From Nitrobacter sp. 62-23 (GTDB lineage: Bacteria > Pseudomonadota > Alphaproteobacteria > Rhizobiales > Xanthobacteraceae), in NCBI RefSeq assembly GCF_001897285.1, contig NZ_MKSM01000123.1:12675-76674 (forward strand): 64,000 bases of DNA, in the 5' to 3' direction. Shown piece after piece: positions 2,946 through 42,258 of the stretch (its first letter is position 1; every line of letters begins with the position of its first letter). A program made the translations under genes and the position numbers. The notes beneath the pieces were generated by a model. It searched no databases. It was given only the letters and a program-made list of their open reading frames with translations, and was not told the DNA's origin.

Positions 2946-3776
2946 TCATCCCGCTCTGGCCGACCGCACGCCCGCGGCCAGCGACGCCACGAGACCGGCG
3001 ACCGCGTTGACGGTCCCGGCCGTCGCCTTGCCCCCGGTATCGAGGCTGCCGGAGAGCGCATCGACCAGCGCGGAGCCGACCACCGCGCCGTCGGCGCCCT
3101 CGGCGATGCCACGCGCCGCCTCCGGGGTGCGAATGCCGAAGCCGACGCAGACCGGCAAATCGGTATGGCGCTTGATGCGTCCAACCGCCGCGCCGACGGC
3201 GGCCGAATCCGCAGCCGCGCTGCCGGTGATCCCGGTGATCGAGACGTAGTAGACGAAACCGGAGGTGTTCGCGAGCACCGCCGGCAGCCGCTTGTCGTCG
3301 GTGGTCGGCGTCGCGAGGCGAATGAAATTCAGTCCCGCCTTCATCGCCGGAATGCACAGTTCGGAGTCTTCCTCCGGCGGCAGATCGACGACGATAAGGC
3401 CGTCGATGCCAGCGGCCTTCGCGTCGACAAGAAACCTCTCGACGCCGTAAATGTAGATCGGATTGTAATATCCCATCAGCACGACCGGCGTCGCGTCCTC
3501 ATTTTGCCGGAAGTCGCGGATCATCTGCAGCGTCTTGGTCACGGTCATGCCCGCCTTGAGCGCGCGCCGCCCGGCGGCCTGGACCGCGGGGCCGTCCGCC
3601 ATCGGATCGGTGAACGGCATTCCGATTTCAATGATGTCGGCGCCTGCCTCAGGCAGCGCCTGAATGATGGCGAGCGAGGTCGCGGGGTCCGGGTCGCCGG
3701 CCATCAGGAAGGTGACGAAGGCCGCGCGGCCCTGCTTCCGCAATTCGGCAAAACGCGTGTCGATACGGGTGCTCAC
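2946..3776 (-). CDS. trpA: Tryptophan synthase alpha
   Basis: [36 protein letters not shown]. Confidence 0.97.
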
Positions 3777-5017
3777 GTCTTCCTGCCCTTCAAGATCTCG
3801 CCGACCTGCGGCACGTCCTTGTCGCCGCGGCCGGAGAGGTTGACCACCATCAGGTGATCTTTGGACCGCTGCGGCGCGAGTTCGATGACACGCGCGATCG
3901 CGTGCGCCGATTCCAGCGCCGGGATGATGCCTTCAAGCCGCGACAGCAGTTGAAACGCGGCGAGCGCCTCCTCGTCGGTCGCGGACAGATAGGTGACGCG
4001 GCCGGTCTCACGCAGCCATGAATGCTCCGGCCCGATGCCGGGATAATCGAGGCCGGCGGAGATCGAGTGCGCGTCCTGGATCTGGCCGTCATCGTCCATC
4101 AGGAGATACGTCCGGTTACCGTGCAGCACGCCCGGCCGCCCGCCGGTGAGCGAGGCGGCGTGCAGCTTGTCGAGGCCGTGTCCCGCCGCCTCGACGCCGA
4201 AAATCTCCACCGAGGCATCGTCGAGAAACGGGTGGAACAGTCCCATCGCATTGGAACCGCCGCCGATGCAGGCGATCAGCGAATCCGGCAGGCGGCCCTC
4301 GGCCTCCTGCATCTGCGCGCGCGTCTCCGCGCCGATGACCGACTGGAAGTCGCGCACCATCATCGGATAGGGATGCGGCCCCGCCACCGTGCCGATGCAA
4401 TAGAAGGTGTTGTGCACGTTGGTCACCCAGTCGCGGAGCGCCTCGTTCATGGCGTCCTTGAGCGTGCGGGTGCCGGACTGCACCGGCACCACTTTGGCGC
4501 CCAGCATCTCCATGCGGATGACGTTGGGCTCCTGCCGCGCCACGTCGACCGCGCCCATATAGACCACGCAGTCGAGGCCGAAGCGCGCGCACAGCGTCGC
4601 GGTCGCAACGCCATGCTGGCCCGCGCCGGTCTCGGCGATGATGCGCTTCTTGCCCATGCGACGCGCGACCAGAATCTGGCCGAGCACGTTGTTGACCTTG
4701 TGCGAGCCGGTGTGGTTGAGCTCCTCCCGCTTCAGATAGATCTTTGCGCCACCAGCGCGGCCGGAAGCCGCGGAAATGTCCCGAAGATGCTCGGTCAGGC
4801 GCTCGGCGAAATACAAGGGCGACGGACGGCCGACATAGTTCTTGCGGTAGCCGGCCATCTCGCGCTGGAACGCCGAATCGGCCCTGGCTTCGGCATAGGC
4901 CTTCTCCAGATCGAGGATCAGCGGCATCAGCGTTTCCGCCACGAAGCGGCCGCCGAAAATGCCGAAGTGTCCGCGCTCGTCGGGACCGGATCGGAAGGAA
5001 TTGGGGAGAGAGTTCAT
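3773..5017 (-). CDS. trpB: Tryptophan synthase beta
   Basis: [17 protein letters not shown] lysine, [21 protein letters not shown]. Confidence 0.97.
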
Positions 5018-36370: not shown

Positions 36371-36443
36371 AACGTTTTTGCGGAAACGGTTTGCGAGATC
36401 GCAGGGCCCCACGCCCAGGACACGCATTCGCACCCCTTCCCCG

Positions 36444-36472
36444 TTGCCAATCCGGCCATCCTCTGCCATAAG
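36444..36472 (+). promoter_or_regulatory. Sigma70-type promoter for rpmI-rplT
   Basis: TTGCCA-N17-CATAAG. Confidence 0.5.
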
Positions 36473-36650
36473 CCTGTCCTTCGCCGCCCGGCTGATTCAA
36501 GGGCTGCCGTGGCGACGACCCGTGCTGGATTTTCTCGGGATTTTCTTTCGGAAATACGAGAATAGCCGAGCACTTTTAATGCTCTAGCGAGCAATTTCAG
36601 CCACTTGGCCGCCCTCCGGGCGGATTTCGTCGTGGCGACAGGAGAGCCAA

Positions 36651-36851
36651 ATGCCCAAGCTGAAGACCAAATCGGGCGCGAAAAAGCGCTTCAAGATCAC
36701 GGCCACCGGGAAGGTCAAGCACGCCCAGCGCGGCAAGCGCCACGGCATGATCAAGCGGACCAAGAAGCAGATTCGTCAGCTTCGCGGCACCCGCGTGCTG
36801 TTCAAGACTGACGGCGACAACATCAAGAAATACTTCTTGCCCAACGCCTGA
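36651..36851 (+). CDS. rpmI: 50S ribosomal protein L35
   Basis: [22 protein letters not shown]. Confidence 0.97.
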
Positions 36852-36915
36852 CCTCCGCTCGCCGCGACGACGCGGCATCCCGCATTAACCCGTTGATTTT
36901 GAGAGGAGTTCAGTC

Positions 36916-37275
36916 ATGGCTCGCGTCAAGCGCGGTGTGACGGCTCATGCCAAGCACAAGAAAGTCTACAAGGTCACCAAGGGCTTTTCCGGCCGCCGGA
37001 AGAACACCATTCGCGCCGCCAAGGCGGCCGCCGACAAGGCCGGCCAGTACGCCTTCCGCGATCGCAAGCGCAAGAAGCGCACCTTCCGCGCGCTCTGGAT
37101 CCAGCGCCTCAACGCCGCCGTGCGGCCGTTCGGCATGACCTACAGCCGCTTCATCGACGGGCTGTCGAAGTCGGGCATCACCGTTGACCGCAAGGTGCTG
37201 TCGGACCTCGCCATCCACGAGCCGGCGGCGTTCCAGGCGATCGCCGAGAAAGCCAAGGCCGCGCTCGCGGCCTGA
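36916..37275 (+). CDS. rplT: 50S ribosomal protein L20
   Basis: [38 protein letters not shown]. Confidence 0.98.
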
Positions 37276-37282
37276 TTGTTTT

Positions 37283-37441
37283 ACCCTCCCCTGGAGGGGG
37301 AGGGTCGGCGCCGCATGACGACGCTTGCGTCGCTGTGAGGCGTCGGGGTGGGGTGTCCTGCCAACCTGCACGTGCCCCGCATTCCGATTCACCCCCACCC
37401 GATCTGCTTCGCAGATCGACCTCCCCCCTCCAGGGGGAGGT
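37283..37441. repeat. Paired CCCTCCCC REP-like element
   Basis: accctcccctggagggggagggt ... cctcccccctccagggggaggt. Confidence 0.75.
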
Positions 37442-37461
37442 GGGAGAACGGGGCGCCGTCC

Positions 37462-38583
37462 ATGTCCGATCCCGAAAAGTCCGATCTCGATTCCCTTCAA
37501 TCCCAGATCCTCGGCCAGATCGCAGCCGCCACCGACGAGGCCGCGCTGGAAGCGGTGCGCATCGCAACGCTCGGCAAGAAGGGGTCGATCTCCGCGCTGC
37601 TCGCTACGCTCGGCAAGATGTCGCCCGAGGCGCGCAAGACGCAAGGCGCCGCGATCAACCTCGCCAAGGATGCGGTGACGCAGGCGCTGGGGGCGCGGCG
37701 CGAGGTGCTCAAGGCCGCCGCGCTCGACGCGCGTCTCGCCTCGGAAACCATCGACGTCACGCTTCCCTTGCGCGAGCCTCCTGCGGAGGCCGGCCGCATC
37801 CATCCGCTGAGCCAGGTGTGGGACGAGGTCACCACTATCTTCGCCGACATGGGCTTTGCGGTCGCCGAAGGGCCCGACATCGAGACCGACGACTACAACT
37901 TCACCCGGCTGAATTTTCCCGAAGGCCATCCGGCGCGGGAGATGCACGACACGTTCTACTTCAACCCGAAGGGGGACACCGGGTCTGAGCCCGGGGCAGG
38001 CGGCTCGCGCCTATTGCTGCGCACGCACACCTCGCCGGTGCAGGTGCGCACCATGCTCAGTCAGAAGCCGCCGATCCGCGTCATCTGTCCCGGCCGCACC
38101 TATCGCAGCGACAGTGACCAGACCCACACGCCGATGTTCCATCAGGTCGAGGGGCTGGTGATCGACAAGTCGTCGCATCTCGGCCACCTCAAATGGATCC
38201 TGCACGAATTCTGCAAGGCGTTCTTCGAGGTCGACAACGTCAACATGCGATTCCGTCCGTCGTTCTTTCCCTTCACCGAGCCGTCGCTGGAAGTCGACAT
38301 CCAGTGCCGCCGCGACAAGCACGAGATCCGCTTCGGCGAGGGTGAGGACTGGCTGGAGATTCTCGGCTGCGGCATGGTGCATCCGAACGTGCTGAAGCTC
38401 TGCGGTCTCGATCCGGAAGTTTATCAGGGCTTCGCCTGGGGCATGGGGATCGATCGCATCGCGATGCTGAAATACGGCATCGCCGATCTGCGGCAGTTGT
38501 TCGAAGGCGACGTGCGCTGGCTCACTCACTACGGCTTCAGGCCGCTAGAGGTGCCGACGCTGGCGGGAGGATTGAGTTCGTGA
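37462..38583 (+). CDS. pheS: Phenylalanine-tRNA ligase alpha
   Basis: [49 protein letters not shown]. Confidence 0.97.
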
Positions 38584-39032
38584 ACCTTCTAAATAAAACG
38601 ATTGCCTGTTTTGACAGTGCAGCGCTTCGCCTCGTGTCCAAAGAGGAATTAGAGAAAAGAGACAGAGATCTAAAAAATGAAGATCCGAACAGTGCTCTCG
38701 GCCGAGCGATTTACGAGGCCTACGATTCGGTAGACACGAAAGCAACCGCGATACTCCAACATGTCTCCATAATGATTGCTGTCACGGGCGTACTTTATTC
38801 TTGGACGAGCATCGCATTACTGAGATTGCTATTCGGTATTGAGACACTTCTATACGTGTCGCTCGCGGTCTTTTGCTTAAGGCTTTTCATGGTCCAAAAT
38901 CATTCAGAATCGCTATCTGACACTGAAAACGCGGTTATGCGTGAAGCGCTTTTGGATATAACGGCAAAACTTACTTTTTTTGTTTCGGTTGTTTTGATTG
39001 GCACTGTCATCATTGAGTTGGTGCTGAGATGA
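38580..39032 (+). CDS. AT-rich orphan small membrane protein (about 3 TM)
   Basis: 150-codon ORF filling the pheS-pheT gap with GTGA and ATGA overlaps; hand-counted G+C 28/60, 23/60, 21/60 versus 41/60 in pheT. Confidence 0.75.
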
Positions 39033-41482
39033 AATTCACCCTCTCCTGGCTGAAAGAGCATCTCGACACCGACGAGCCGCTGGACAAACTCGCCGACAAG
39101 CTGACCATGATCGGGCTCGAGGTCGAGCACATCGCGGACAAGTCGAAGGCGCTTGCGCCCTACACCGTCGCGCGGGTGGTCTCGGCCGTGCAGCATCCGA
39201 ACGCGGATCGTCTCAGGGTGTGCATGGTCGATACCGGCGAGACCAATGACAAGGGCGAGCCCGCTTATATCCAGGTGGTGTGTGGCGCGCCCAACGCGCG
39301 CGAGGGCCTCGTCAGCGTGTTCGCGCCGCCCGGCACCTACATTCCGGGCAAGGACATCACGCTTGGGGTCGGCACCATTCGCGGCGTCGAGAGCCGCGGC
39401 ATGCTGTGCTCCGCGGCCGAACTCGAAATTTCCGACGACCATGACGGCATTATCGAACTGCCGGCTGACGCGCCGGTCGGCACCGGCTATGCGGAATGGG
39501 CCGGCCTCGGCGATCCCGTCATCGAGATTAACCTGACGCCGAACCGGCAGGACTGCACCGGCGTGCACGGCATCGCGCGCGACCTCGCCGCCGCCGACAT
39601 GGGCAGCCTCAAAAATCCGACCATCAAGCCGGTCAAGGGCGAATTCCCCTGCCCGGTGAAGGTCACGGTTGAAGACGCCGCGCTTTGCCCCGGCTTCGCG
39701 CTGCGGCTGGTTCGCGGGGTGAGGAACGGCCCCTCACCGGAATGGCTGCAAAAGCGCCTGACCTCGATCGGCCTGCGTCCGATCAACGCGCTGGTCGATA
39801 TCACTAACTTCATGACCTACGATCGCGGCCGGCCGTTGCACGTGTTCGACGCGAACAAGGTGCATGGCAATCTCACGGTGCGCCGCGCCCGCGACGGCGA
39901 GACGCTGCTTTCGCTCGACGGCCGCACCTACACGCTCGATCCGGGCGTCTGCGTTATCGCCGACGACAACGGTGTCGAATCGCTCGCCGGCATCATGGGC
40001 GGCGAGGAATCCGGCTGCGACGAGGGCACGACGGATGTGCTGATCGAATCGGCGCTGTGGAGCGAGATCAACATCGCGCAGACCGGCCGCAGGCTCGGCA
40101 TCAATTCCGACGCGCGCTATCGTTTCGAGCGTGGCGTCGATCCCGCTTTCATGGTGCCCGGGCTTGAGATGGCGACGCGGCTGGTGATGGAATTGTGCGG
40201 CGGCACGCCGTCGGAGACGATCGTCGCCGGACAGGCGCTGCCCGAGGACCGGGTGATCGATTTTCCGCTGGCGGAGACCAAACGTCTCGCGGCGATCGAC
40301 GTGCCGCTGCCTGAGATGCGCCGCATTCTCGGCCGTCTCGGCTTCATGGTGGCCGGCAATGGCCCCGTGGTGAAGGTCGCCATTCCAACCTGGCGCACCG
40401 ACGTTCACGGCAAGGCCGACATCGTCGAGGAGATCGTGCGCATCGTCGGCGTCGACAAGGTGCCGATGACGCCGTTCGATCGGGGCGACGCGGCACGCAA
40501 GCCGGTGCTGACGCCGATCCAGTCGCGCACGCGAAAGACGCGGCGTGCGCTCGCGGCGCGCGGCATGGTCGAAGCCGTCAACTGGTCGTTCATCGCGAAA
40601 TCGCAGGCCGAATTGTTCGGCGGCGGGAATGCGGAATTGGCGCTCGCCAATCCGATCGCGGCTGATCTCTCCGACATGCGGCCGAGCCTGCTGCCGGGCC
40701 TCGTCGCCATCGCGCAGGCCAATGCCGACCGCGGCTTTCCGGATGTGGCGCTGTTCGAGGTCGGGCAGATCTTCCGTGGCGACCGTCCACAGGATCAGTT
40801 CACCGCGGCCGCCGGCGTTCGCCGCGGCATCGCCTCGTCGGCAGGCATCGGGCGGCACTGGTCGGGCTCGGCCGCGGCGGGTTCGCTTGATGCCAATACC
40901 TTCGATGTAAAGGCCGATGCGTTCGCGGTGCTGGCCGCAGCCGGCGCGCCTGTGCAGGCGATGCAGGCTGCGGCCAGCAATGAGTCGAAGAATTTTCCGG
41001 CATGGCTGCATCCCGGACGTTCGGCCGCGATCCAGATCGGGCCGCATAACGTGCTCGGCTATTTCGGCGAGTTGCATCCGCGCGTGCTTGAGGCGTTGAG
41101 AGCCGACGGTCCGGTGATGGCGTTCGAGGTGATCCTCGACCGCATTCCGGAAAGCAAGCAGAAGGCGACGCGCGCCAAGCCGGTGCTGGAGCTGCCGGCG
41201 TTTCAGCCGGTGTCGCGCGACTTCGCCTTCATCGTCGATCGCGGCGTGAAAGCCGCCGACATCGCGCGCGCGGCGCAAGGCGTGGACAAAAAACTGATCG
41301 CCGGCGTCACCGTGTTCGACGTCTATGAGGGCAAGGGCATCGAGGCGAACAAGAAATCGGTCGCCATCGCGGTGGCGATCCAGCCGCGTGACAAGACGCT
41401 GACCGATCAGGAGATCGACGCGGTGGCGGCGAAGATCGTCGCCGAGGTCACGAAGAAAACCGGCGGGAGCTTGCGGGGCTAA
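39029..41482 (+). CDS. pheT: Phenylalanine-tRNA ligase beta
   Basis: [45 protein letters not shown]-like C-terminus. Confidence 0.97.
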
Positions 41483-41484
41483 AG

Positions 41485-41773
41485 CTAGAGTCTTTCACCT
41501 TTTCACGGAAACGGTGAAAGACTCCAGGTTCTTGATTTGACCCGTTTTCTTGACGCAACCGGTTTTCTTGACGCAACCGATCGCCACTTCGCCTGAAAAC
41601 GCTCTAGTGGAGTGAATTTGACATTCGCTACCCACTTTGCAGCGAACTTGTCAGGCGAATGTCACATTCAAAACTCCACTAGAAACCTGATAGTTGCTAG
41701 TGGTCCTTTGATTCTAACATCTGCAGGAACTCCCTGCCGCAACGGGATGCAAATGTTAGAATCGGACCACTAG
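41485..41773. mobile_element. Chain of mini-elements joined at CTAG
   Basis: CTAG at 41485, 41604, 41678, 41696, 41770; 18-bp internal tandem duplication 41544-41579; last CTAG holds the secB stop. Confidence 0.8.
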
Positions 41774-42258
41774 CTCGGCTTTTGTTGCGCTGCTTCCTGC
41801 GCTGCCTGGCGTTCCATGTTTTGCCGGTACAAGCTCACGAAATCGATGGGGTCAAGCATCAGCGGTGGGAATCCGCCGTCGCGGACGACCGTCGCAACGA
41901 TTTGGCGCGCGAACGGGAATAACAGCCGCGGGCATTCGATCATGACCAGCGGATGCAGGTTTTCCTTGGGAACGTTGACGATCCGGAACACCCCGGCATA
42001 GGCCAGCTCGAAACCGAACATCAGCTTGCCGGTATGTTCGGCCTTGCCCTCGACCTTCAGAACCACCTCGTAGTCGTTCTCCGCGACATTGGAGGCGCCG
42101 ACATTGATTTGAACGTTAATCGAGGGGGGCTGTTGCTGCGGGGCAAGCGAGGCAGGCGCATTGGGATTCTCGAAAGAGAGATCCTTGGTGTATTGGGCCA
42201 GCACATTCAACTGGGGTGAAGGGCCCGCCTCTGGAGGTGTGCCGTTGCCGTTGGTCAT
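41770..42258 (-). CDS. secB: Protein-export chaperone SecB
   Basis: [45 protein letters not shown]. Confidence 0.96.

Follow-up and report, generated by a model that had tools for sequence, protein, structure and literature searches.

Defence islands and integration hot spots consist of accessory genes that are bounded by conserved genes. PycTM and PucTM have been described as pJV1-SpdB3-family proteins with three transmembrane (TM) helices, i.e. 3TM proteins, and EcPucTM is a hexameric channel lined by TM2 (bioRxiv 10.64898/2026.08.12.744502). SpdB3 is highly toxic upon expression in E. coli (PMC4447253). The subject of this analysis is a gene of Nitrobacter sp. 62-23, termed X, which is located between pheS and pheT, the genes that encode the alpha and beta subunits of phenylalanyl-tRNA synthetase (PheRS). 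The DNA analyzed is a 64,000-nucleotide (nt) stretch (contig NZ_MKSM01000123.1, positions 12,675–76,674, forward strand), referred to as the window. Coordinates are those of the window unless a locus of another genome is named.

Judged by its conservation, X is a genuine gene of a conserved membrane protein under purifying selection. The junction at which it is found is a variable hot spot for accessory genes, with core genes on either side. The reading we prefer, with a probability of about 0.5, is that X specifies a maintained membrane protein, an offshoot of the 3TM superfamily, and that it is non-autonomous cargo of this slot, moved by recombination in the flanking sequences. The X family is unnamed, and nothing was found in the literature that describes it or genes between pheS and pheT.

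Gene X and its predicted protein

The locus displays the following features, where ORF is open reading frame, aa is amino acid and AF2 is AlphaFold2.

36651–36851, + strand: rpmI (L35), from the ORF list; heads the rpmI-rplT-pheS-X-pheT block, the same order being found with Pfam labels at homologous loci
36916–37275, + strand: rplT (L20), from the ORF list, with Pfam labels from syntenic loci
37462–38583, + strand: pheS (PheRS alpha), likely start ATG 37462, stop TGA 38581–38583
38566–38571, + strand: GGAGGA, a Shine-Dalgarno (SD)-like hexamer in Gly-Gly codons of pheS, 8 nt 5′ of the X GTG
38580–39032, + strand: cassette gene X, a 150-aa three-TM membrane protein, AT-rich and rare-codon-rich
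38733–38744, + strand: D52-T-K54-A55 codons, which encode the family signature at the TM1 end facing the cytosol
38745–38804, + strand: TM1 of X (about aa 56–75), with the nearly invariant H61 (hydropathy, alignment, AF2)
38814–38894, + strand: TM2 of X (about aa 79–105), with conserved E88, Y92, C99, L100 and R101 (hydropathy, alignments, AF2)
38961–39026, + strand: TM3 of X (about aa 128–149; hydropathy, AF2)
39012–39023, + strand: right copy of an 11/12 direct repeat, ATTGAGTTGGTG; left copy at 38571–38582
39029–41482, + strand: pheT (PheRS beta), its ATG overlapping the X TGA (ATGA)

The GTG start codon of X (38580–38582) overlaps the pheS TGA (38581–38583), the two sharing GTGA, and its TGA stop codon (39030–39032) overlaps the pheT ATG (39029–39031), the two sharing ATGA. 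A preliminary description of this DNA, made from the nucleotide letters, had reported both overlaps and a sharp drop in G+C content, and both observations are borne out. The GC content of X is 0.415–0.475 vs. 0.61–0.70 in pheS and pheT (200-nt windows), and its GC content at third codon positions (GC3) is 0.47 vs. 0.85 for pheS and 0.84 for pheT. X has a codon adaptation index (CAI) of 0.30; the reference of 28 long ORFs in the window has a mean of 0.69 and a minimum of 0.60. Rare codons (TTA, CTA, ATA, AGA and others) make up 18% of X vs. a host mean of 1.7% in these ORFs.

A word-indexed search gave 32 X homologues with 46%–80% identity, of which 30 have chain lengths of 135–153 aa and two are short fragments. 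None of the 32 carries an informative name. A profile search of 1.84 billion cluster representatives extends the family to 505 clusters at E ≤ 1e-3 (296 at E ≤ 1e-10), almost all of them 140–190 aa in length. Alignments display two signatures, (I/V)-D-x-K-A-x-x-L-L-x-H-V-S-x-M-I-A at the start of TM1 and E-x3-Y-x3-A-x2-C-L-R in TM2. Residues D52, K54, A55, L59, M65, L100 and R101 are invariant in 20 relatives. The dN/dS ratio of X is 0.10 between the window and locus L068, and 0.07 between L005 and L071. These low ratios and the invariant polar residues show that selection acts on the protein sequence itself.

The AF2 model of X, built with 36 sequences, has a pLDDT of 85 and a pTM of 0.74. 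It shows helices at aa positions 2–18, 21–32, 39–75, 79–107 and 114–149, i.e. two short N-terminal helices and three of membrane length. This agrees with the order of a charged helix, a 14-letter motif and about three TM segments that had been drawn by eye; the motif is present, and both hydropathy and AF2 give three TM segments. Scans of X and 20–36 relatives against Pfam, NCBIfam and PHROGs gave no credible family, only sub-threshold matches to DUF3981 and scattered TM matches.

X might be a non-functional sequence, either an ORF that arose by chance in an AT-rich spacer or one produced by faulty assembly. Its atypical codon usage would be in line with this, and so would the RNA searches, which gave just low-depth exact pieces of X in runs filed as ‘rna’ of unspecified library type. 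Against this, hundreds of homologues keep the length and the motifs, the dN/dS ratio is about 0.1, and the sequence is present in many independent runs. Faulty assembly does not account for the stretch, as near-identical X-region DNA was recovered in 20 runs of several studies, made from bioreactors, wastewater and the rhizosphere. The conservation effectively refutes a non-functional X, and we give that explanation almost no weight.

A promoter scan of positions 36400–41800 found none, thus a promoter belonging to X itself is unsupported. Only weak SD-like sequences are found 5′ of pheT within the cassette. The preliminary description had also reported neither a repeat nor a mobility gene. 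The latter is indeed absent near X, which is the sole ORF of the insert, but there is one flanking repeat, the 11/12 direct repeat ATTGAGTT(C/G)GTG at 38571–38582 and 39012–39023. By our own estimate about 0.5 repeats of this quality are expected by chance in the stretch, and the repeat is not conserved among X relatives. It may be a relic of insertion or a chance occurrence; a target duplication, considered for this repeat, is kept as a possibility only, as the repeat is near chance level and unconserved. Hallmarks of an autonomous mobile element were looked for at X and none was found, i.e. no other ORF in the insert, no significant repeats, and no phage or plasmid match.

The pheS–pheT junction as a variable slot

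The pheS C-terminus and the pheT N-terminus were located in 201 genomes of the bacterial family, and 130 of these have both listed on one contig. The C-terminal 100 aa of PheS are 78%–98% identical in 197 of the 201 genomes. The junction itself varies: the 130 genomes display a direct overlap of the two genes (49), a spacer of 12–265 bp (18), or an insert of 395–1437 bp (63). All 63 inserts were fetched and classified, and three genomes have two kinds of cargo. The gaps retrieved (L008–L067 and L128–L135) come from 68 genomes of the family, these 63 included. The preliminary description had proposed a cassette slot between two essential genes. This was largely right, with 63 of 130 species carrying cargo of at least five unrelated kinds. 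The catalogue of intervening genes that it had also proposed is as follows.

DUF559 (PF04480) endonuclease-like gene: 36 genomes, at least two disrupted
X family: 13 genomes, one apparently frameshifted
Two-gene cassette (about 100 aa and about 155 aa): 8 genomes, the second protein with a weakly HEPN-like fold
ASCH (PF04266): 6 genomes
Singletons: 3 genomes

DUF559 genes number only 3–4 copies per genome, yet one is often in the pheS–pheT slot; such frequent presence is therefore not expected from random placement. Within Nitrobacter the slot is empty in G012 and G015, has DUF559 in G010 and G013, the two-gene cassette in G005, and X in G000 and G021, with very different X alleles in the latter two. 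Distant lineages carry the same cargo, e.g. the two-gene cassette with DUF2442 and X (L100), X with ASCH (L127), and X with the two-gene cassette (L096).

The slot is the habitual location of the X family. About 90% of the X-family loci examined, distant lineages included, sit between pheS and pheT, as do all close homologues with readable contigs. The 4-nt start/stop overlaps are found at both ends of X in 12 of 12 close relatives checked. A context-blind pattern scan built on alignment A1, with one genome per GTDB species, gave 24 X loci, 23 of them between pheS and pheT, in genomes named Nitrobacter, Pseudolabrys, Pseudorhodoplanes, Bradyrhizobiaceae and Xanthobacteraceae. Of the distant members, which have 22%–27% identity to X, six are informative and five of these sit in the slot again; the hosts of the distant members have pheT only 50%–63% identical and a GC content of 0.39–0.61. 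X relatives away from pheST are found at L087, L105 and L106.

Outside of the bacterial family X is rare, with one occurrence in a class-wide sample of 400 genomes and one in a phylum-wide sample of 400. Among the 22 other Nitrobacter genomes, one has it. All 3–4 assessable species of genera g13 and g86 have X, with host-like GC3. X had been called foreign in the preliminary description. It may be so, but X is not a one-off arrival, as the slot is the family's habitual home and X has host-like GC in g13 and g86. A further observation is that X of L064 (G191) seems frameshifted, with the C-terminal 46 aa in one frame and an unrelated 107-aa ORF in another. This copy appears to be a pseudogene or an error of the metagenome-assembled genome; the close relatives L062 and L065 are intact.

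Two X subfamilies can be distinguished.

AT-rich subfamily (window gene included): 149–157 aa, GC3 0.39–0.55, host flank GC3 0.75–0.91, overlaps at both ends always
GC-richer subfamily: 154–171 aa, GC3 0.75–0.87, overall GC of the gene about that of the flanks, junctions less strict

The GC-richer subfamily is the one present in all assessable g13 and g86 species. All 12 AT-rich alleles (12 of 12) hold a GC3 of 0.39–0.55 in hosts with 0.75–0.91, although their synonymous divergence is saturated. Thus either the divergence arose elsewhere or the AT-rich codons are selected. One reading is that slow or low translation is favored by selection because the channel may be toxic, and another is repeated import. 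Recent arrival from a low-GC donor was rejected as the whole cause, given the 12 AT-rich alleles and the pair of one AT-rich and one GC-richer gene at L075.

Comparison of the window with Nitrobacter G021 shows sharp boundaries. DNA identity is 88%–98% up to 38579, 37%–70% in the X ORF, and 98% from 39030. The flanks have a dS of 0.21–0.22 and a dN of 0.01–0.02, and X has a dN of 0.52 and a protein identity of 46%. Over 36 loci the correlation between X identity and flank identity is weak (Spearman 0.37), and there are many host pairs with flanks at least 92% identical and X only 22%–57% identical. From these comparisons, X alleles are decoupled from their flanks.

L075 (positions 3361–4441) has tandem X paralogues. 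The GC-richer one (X-like part about 3394–3846) is followed by an AT-rich one with GC3 0.39 (3992–4441). Between them the 5′ end of the resident pheT is repeated exactly over 38 nt (3853–3890), and then follows a degraded pheS 3′-end fragment of about 95 nt (about 3897–3994), which is 90% identical to the resident copy and ends in the ATGA that starts the second X copy. Such a scar is to be expected if the second cassette came in on DNA with pheS and pheT flanks of foreign origin and recombination integrated it. No pheS 3′ or pheT 5′ remnants were found in 66 other gaps and four multi-cargo or distant loci. The 66 gaps fit with most exchanges being clean double crossovers.

The ends of the cassettes are also informative. 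Over its first 23 nt (ATGAAATTCACCCTCTCCTGGCT), pheT shows full identity among the window (39029–39051), L098:596, L126:5503 and L127:6443, even for lineages with PheT proteins about 50% identical overall. Because of this identity, homology arms of unusual quality flank the junction. The empty site of G012 reads TCGTGAAATTCAC; its pheT starts with GTG, and 5′ of that start GGGGGG is found at the position equivalent to GGAGGA. Several cassettes begin with GTGAAATTT or GTGAAATAT, which are pheT's own start and first codons, and the same cassettes end in a new ATGAAATTC. Because of these matching ends, a cassette appears to take over the pheT start of insert-free genomes and to rebuild a pheT start at its other end. 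A phage- or plasmid-borne vector for X was considered and dropped, as phage and plasmid collections gave no match.

Several observations on the other cargo were made. The DUF559 slot gene (e.g. L008:390–893, L059:392–859) is also present in large genomes of genus g60, and GC-rich repeats with the translation PLWGRVREGG or LPHKGGGN often lie next to it. It may be a homing-type element aimed at the junction. ASCH-domain genes (PF04266) are found in the slot at L014, L017, L018, L021, L034, L041 and L127:5594–6022, the last being of a distant lineage and adjoining X. L026:300–740 (G063) and L029:300–722 (G097) have low-GC (0.46–0.47) single-gene inserts, the products of which are unrelated, about 145 aa in length and equipped with a TM helix at the N-terminus. 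Weak matches of the L029 protein are SpoIISA_toxin (E 9e-4) and a 1TM effector of PADLOC (E 0.005).

The two-gene cassette is present at L015:279–1045 (minus strand), L066:320–1084, L009, L020, L025, L050 and L058, and also at L003:828–1301, L096:4477–5207 and L100:400–1145. Its larger protein has the invariant motifs R-R-x2-S-x2-Y-Y-x2-F-H and R-x3-D-Y. With the AF2 model of the 155-aa protein (pLDDT 89), the best PDB match is the HEPN protein 2hsb (E = 0.077, probability 0.98, non-significant), and several other HEPN entries are lower in the list. Pfam and PADLOC scans of the 155-aa protein gave no family. The label HEPN-like, which comes from the predicted model, is thus a weak one; the cassette may be a toxin-antitoxin-like pair. 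In L003:1–825 (G025) the usual stop codon of pheS is missing, and the frame stays open for about 107 more codons, across the small partner of the two-gene cassette. Either PheS is extended at its C-terminus in this genome, or the open frame results from a sequencing error.

Two observations were made elsewhere in the block. Contigs of other strains from three metagenome runs swap a 52–60-nt stretch of pheS (37957–38015) for 13–21 other letters, thus the window pheS carries a variable extra segment at this position. The infC-rpmI gap upstream has differing small ORFs (no Pfam family, or DUF3455) at L005:2448–2822, L007:2799–3152, L070:264–716 and L126:2466–2972, and it may be a second variable spot.

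Similarity to 3TM effectors and possible function

A D-x-K-A pattern before TM1 had been likened by eye to Pycsar-type TM effectors. X and its relatives were compared with PF18967 (gathering score 27.2 bits) and with the PADLOC PycTM models PDLC02363–02365. The PADLOC models match 12 of 20 X relatives (best E 2.8e-6), X itself (E 0.0015, 16.9 bits) and 8 of 10 distant family members (E 2e-5 to 0.06). These matches are weak, though consistent, and always span the motif-TM1-TM2 stretch. Fifteen true PF18967 proteins from other genomes show D-x-K-A/S before TM1, and hhalign of the X family with these proteins gives P = 3.9e-4 on D-x-K-A and TM1. In the ESM Atlas, X adjoins a cluster with 11% PF18967 members (feature score 0.90), and the model of X's nearest cluster, which is not X's own model, compares with that of a 100%-PF18967 cluster with a TM-score of 0.64/0.60 over 114 residues. 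The resemblance is thus upheld by weak but concordant evidence from hidden Markov model (HMM) searches, profile comparison and the Atlas, though not by a PF18967 match. On this evidence the PycTM/pJV1-SpdB3 3TM superfamily probably includes X as a short offshoot without a sensor. It is outside PF18967 as defined and is no part of a Pycsar system. A comparison with SLATT families had also been suggested, and a relation to these is unsupported beyond stray weak matches. The Pfam SLATT profile is unmatched by X and the family members scanned, and the only PADLOC matches, to ‘2TM/4TM Effector’, are isolated ones of single family members (E 0.007–0.04).

Related to possible function, the preferred reading is as follows. 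X would be an inner-membrane protein with two short cytosolic helices and then three TM helices. It would be co-transcribed with the pheST operon and would start at the pheT start site of insert-free genomes, the SD-like hexamer and the RTGA overlap presumably serving for initiation. Ribosomes that finish X would be passed on to pheT via the rebuilt ATGA overlap, and inactivation of X would be costly if pheT translation depends on these ribosomes. The protein may oligomerise into a gated channel, as in PucTM, and in the AT-rich subfamily rare codons may hold its dose low. The toxicity of SpdB3 fits with such a low-dose design (CAI 0.30, 18% rare codons). X would be gained, swapped and lost through recombination in the highly conserved 3′ end of pheS and 5′ end of pheT, so that its alleles and other cargo circulate among related genomes independently of the flanks. 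X may have an anti-phage or toxin role, as had been supposed from the letters, and may act in conflict, i.e. in defence against phages or plasmids, in exclusion, or against competitors.

Several points weigh against this reading. PF18967 is unmatched by X and by the 20 and 10 family members scanned, and a six-frame search of the genome with PF18967 does not reach the X locus even at E ≤ 10. The hhalign probability is just 36% over 36 columns, and TM proteins are prone to composition-driven matches. A fold search of the PDB with the AF2 model of X gave nothing significant (the best match, NINJ1 with E = 0.3, was not used); the PDB copy searched was found to hold no PycTM or PucTM structure. True PF18967 proteins have a cytosolic segment of about 60–70 aa (the LFFG ... 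KYR region) between TM2 and TM3, whereas the corresponding loop of X is about 22 aa (106–127) and lacks LFFG and KYR. No cyclase adjoins X, as had already been seen from the letters, its neighbors being pheS and pheT at all slot loci; the only two PF00211 (class III cyclase) domains of the genome are in 773- and 816-aa proteins on contigs C104 and C113. Phage and plasmid collections and PHROGs gave no X match, and the PADLOC scan of the slot cargo recognised no other defence gene in the slot, which leaves defence without direct support. The rare-codon argument is limited to the AT-rich subfamily. The constancy of X in g13 and g86 is more reminiscent of an accessory gene that is stably kept than of cargo serving in conflict. 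Lastly, the tally of 130 junctions was made by hand from search tables and covers pheS–pheT alone.

The constancy in g13 and g86, with host-like GC3, is also a point for a housekeeping accessory of PheRS, which could be a membrane tether, a sensor of a PheRS product, or a factor in phenylalanine handling. An operon site would serve co-expression and co-translational assembly, the fidelity to the slot is strong across lineages with pheT only 50%–63% identical, and purifying selection on X is strong. Against such an accessory, most species are without X (13 of 130 genomes assessed at the slot in the family have it, as do one of the 22 other Nitrobacter genomes and one of 400 for both the class and the phylum sample), the same slot holds unrelated cargo (DUF559, ASCH, the HEPN-like pair), X alleles are decoupled from the flanks, and L087, L105 and L106 are away from pheST. 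We consider a PheRS accessory unlikely. No more probable is a pure operon parasite without host benefit, kept by the cost of uncoupling pheT and spread via the conserved flanks. The overlaps at both ends in 12 of 12 close relatives, the weak SD-like sequences 5′ of pheT, the lack of a promoter found for X, the poorly adapted codon usage and the L075 scar all suit a parasite. Mere read-through, though, needs no selection of the kind indicated by the dN/dS of 0.07–0.10 and the invariant polar residues, and with neither mobility nor addiction such selection hardly arises except via host fitness. Clean deletion is also possible and evidently common, as 49 of 130 genomes have the direct overlap.

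Less probable than these two is an orphan immunity or exclusion protein, directed against a membrane-acting toxin (a bacteriocin, or a contact-dependent or type VI secretion system effector) or against phage DNA entry. Immunity proteins to pore-formers may resemble X in size and 3-TM topology. The divergent alleles with sharp boundaries in near-identical backgrounds would match divergent attackers, and expression from a housekeeping operon would be constitutive. A cognate toxin gene is however not nearby, and the most conserved positions of X are charged and polar residues at the membrane interface throughout the family, which suggests a common ligand or gating site and not a specificity that varies. 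In addition, the sole family-level similarity found is to 3TM proteins of the effector type. One more possibility, a speculative one that we rank lower again, is that pheS-X-pheT is a self-contained sensor-effector unit in which a sensor-less 3TM channel is gated by PheRS itself. The gate might be an Ap4A-type nucleotide made by PheRS when tRNA-Phe is missing or damaged, or alternatively the loss of a co-translational contact with newly made subunits. If so, attack on tRNA-Phe or on translation by a phage or toxin would open the channel, and the fidelity of the X family to one junction across distant lineages would be explained.

Comparison with described systems

The preferred reading, that of a maintained 3TM-type protein carried as slot cargo, has some general implications. 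The overlapping stop and start codons of essential, translationally coupled genes can act as a long-lived swap-site for small genes. In a large bacterial family, the members of which live in soil or wastewater or are plant-associated, nearly half of the species have cargo at this junction, and at least one protein family, X, lives almost only there. The gene would spread without mobility machinery, with some of the most conserved sequences of the genome serving as homology arms, and for the AT-rich subfamily the host operon would also provide transcription and ribosomes. The X branch would be a short, sensor-less addition to the Pycsar/Pucsar 3TM superfamily that is small and tractable for the study of channel gating. 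The Nitrobacter slot variants (empty, DUF559, two-gene cassette and two X alleles) are natural isogenic-like test objects.

SpdB3 of the Streptomyces conjugative plasmids pJV1 and pSVH1 is the named prototype of the 3TM superfamily of PycTM, and X is likened to it by way of PycTM. SpdB3 is plasmid-borne and, together with TraB and further Spd proteins, serves the intramycelial spread of the plasmid. X, in contrast, is chromosomal and solitary, is found in Alphaproteobacteria, and is unmatched in plasmid collections.

PycTM and PucTM share with X the three TM helices and a similar chain length (150–170 aa in X, 154–165 positions in the PADLOC models). The D-x-K-A sequence on the N-terminal side of TM1, with its Lys invariant in both, is also shared, and there is weak similarity by HMM, profile-profile, language-model and predicted-structure comparison. 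X differs in that PF18967 is unmatched and in lacking both the TM2–TM3 segment of about 60 aa and a nucleotide-binding appendage. It has a conserved H61/E88/C99-L-R101 signature of its own. Furthermore, no cyclase partner is adjacent, and the site of X is an essential housekeeping operon, not a defence locus of two genes.

As to the means of exchange, the L075 scar resembles what is called homology-facilitated illegitimate recombination, reportedly described by de Vries and Wackernagel in 2002. The remnants at L075 are those that one homologous and one illegitimate crossover would leave. This single footprint suggests that the process may operate at the slot.

The slot as a whole compares best with hot spots flanked by core genes. 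Both display a fixed position, conserved boundaries, small cargo that differs among relatives, presence/absence polymorphism, and exchange via flanking homology. Unlike the usual hot spots, the slot involves no integrase or tRNA gene and lies inside an operon, at the stop/start overlap of two essential subunit genes, and the AT-rich X subfamily rebuilds the overlap at both ends and is without a promoter. We thus rate the pheS–pheT slot as an unusual intra-operon variant of the core-gene-flanked hot spots.

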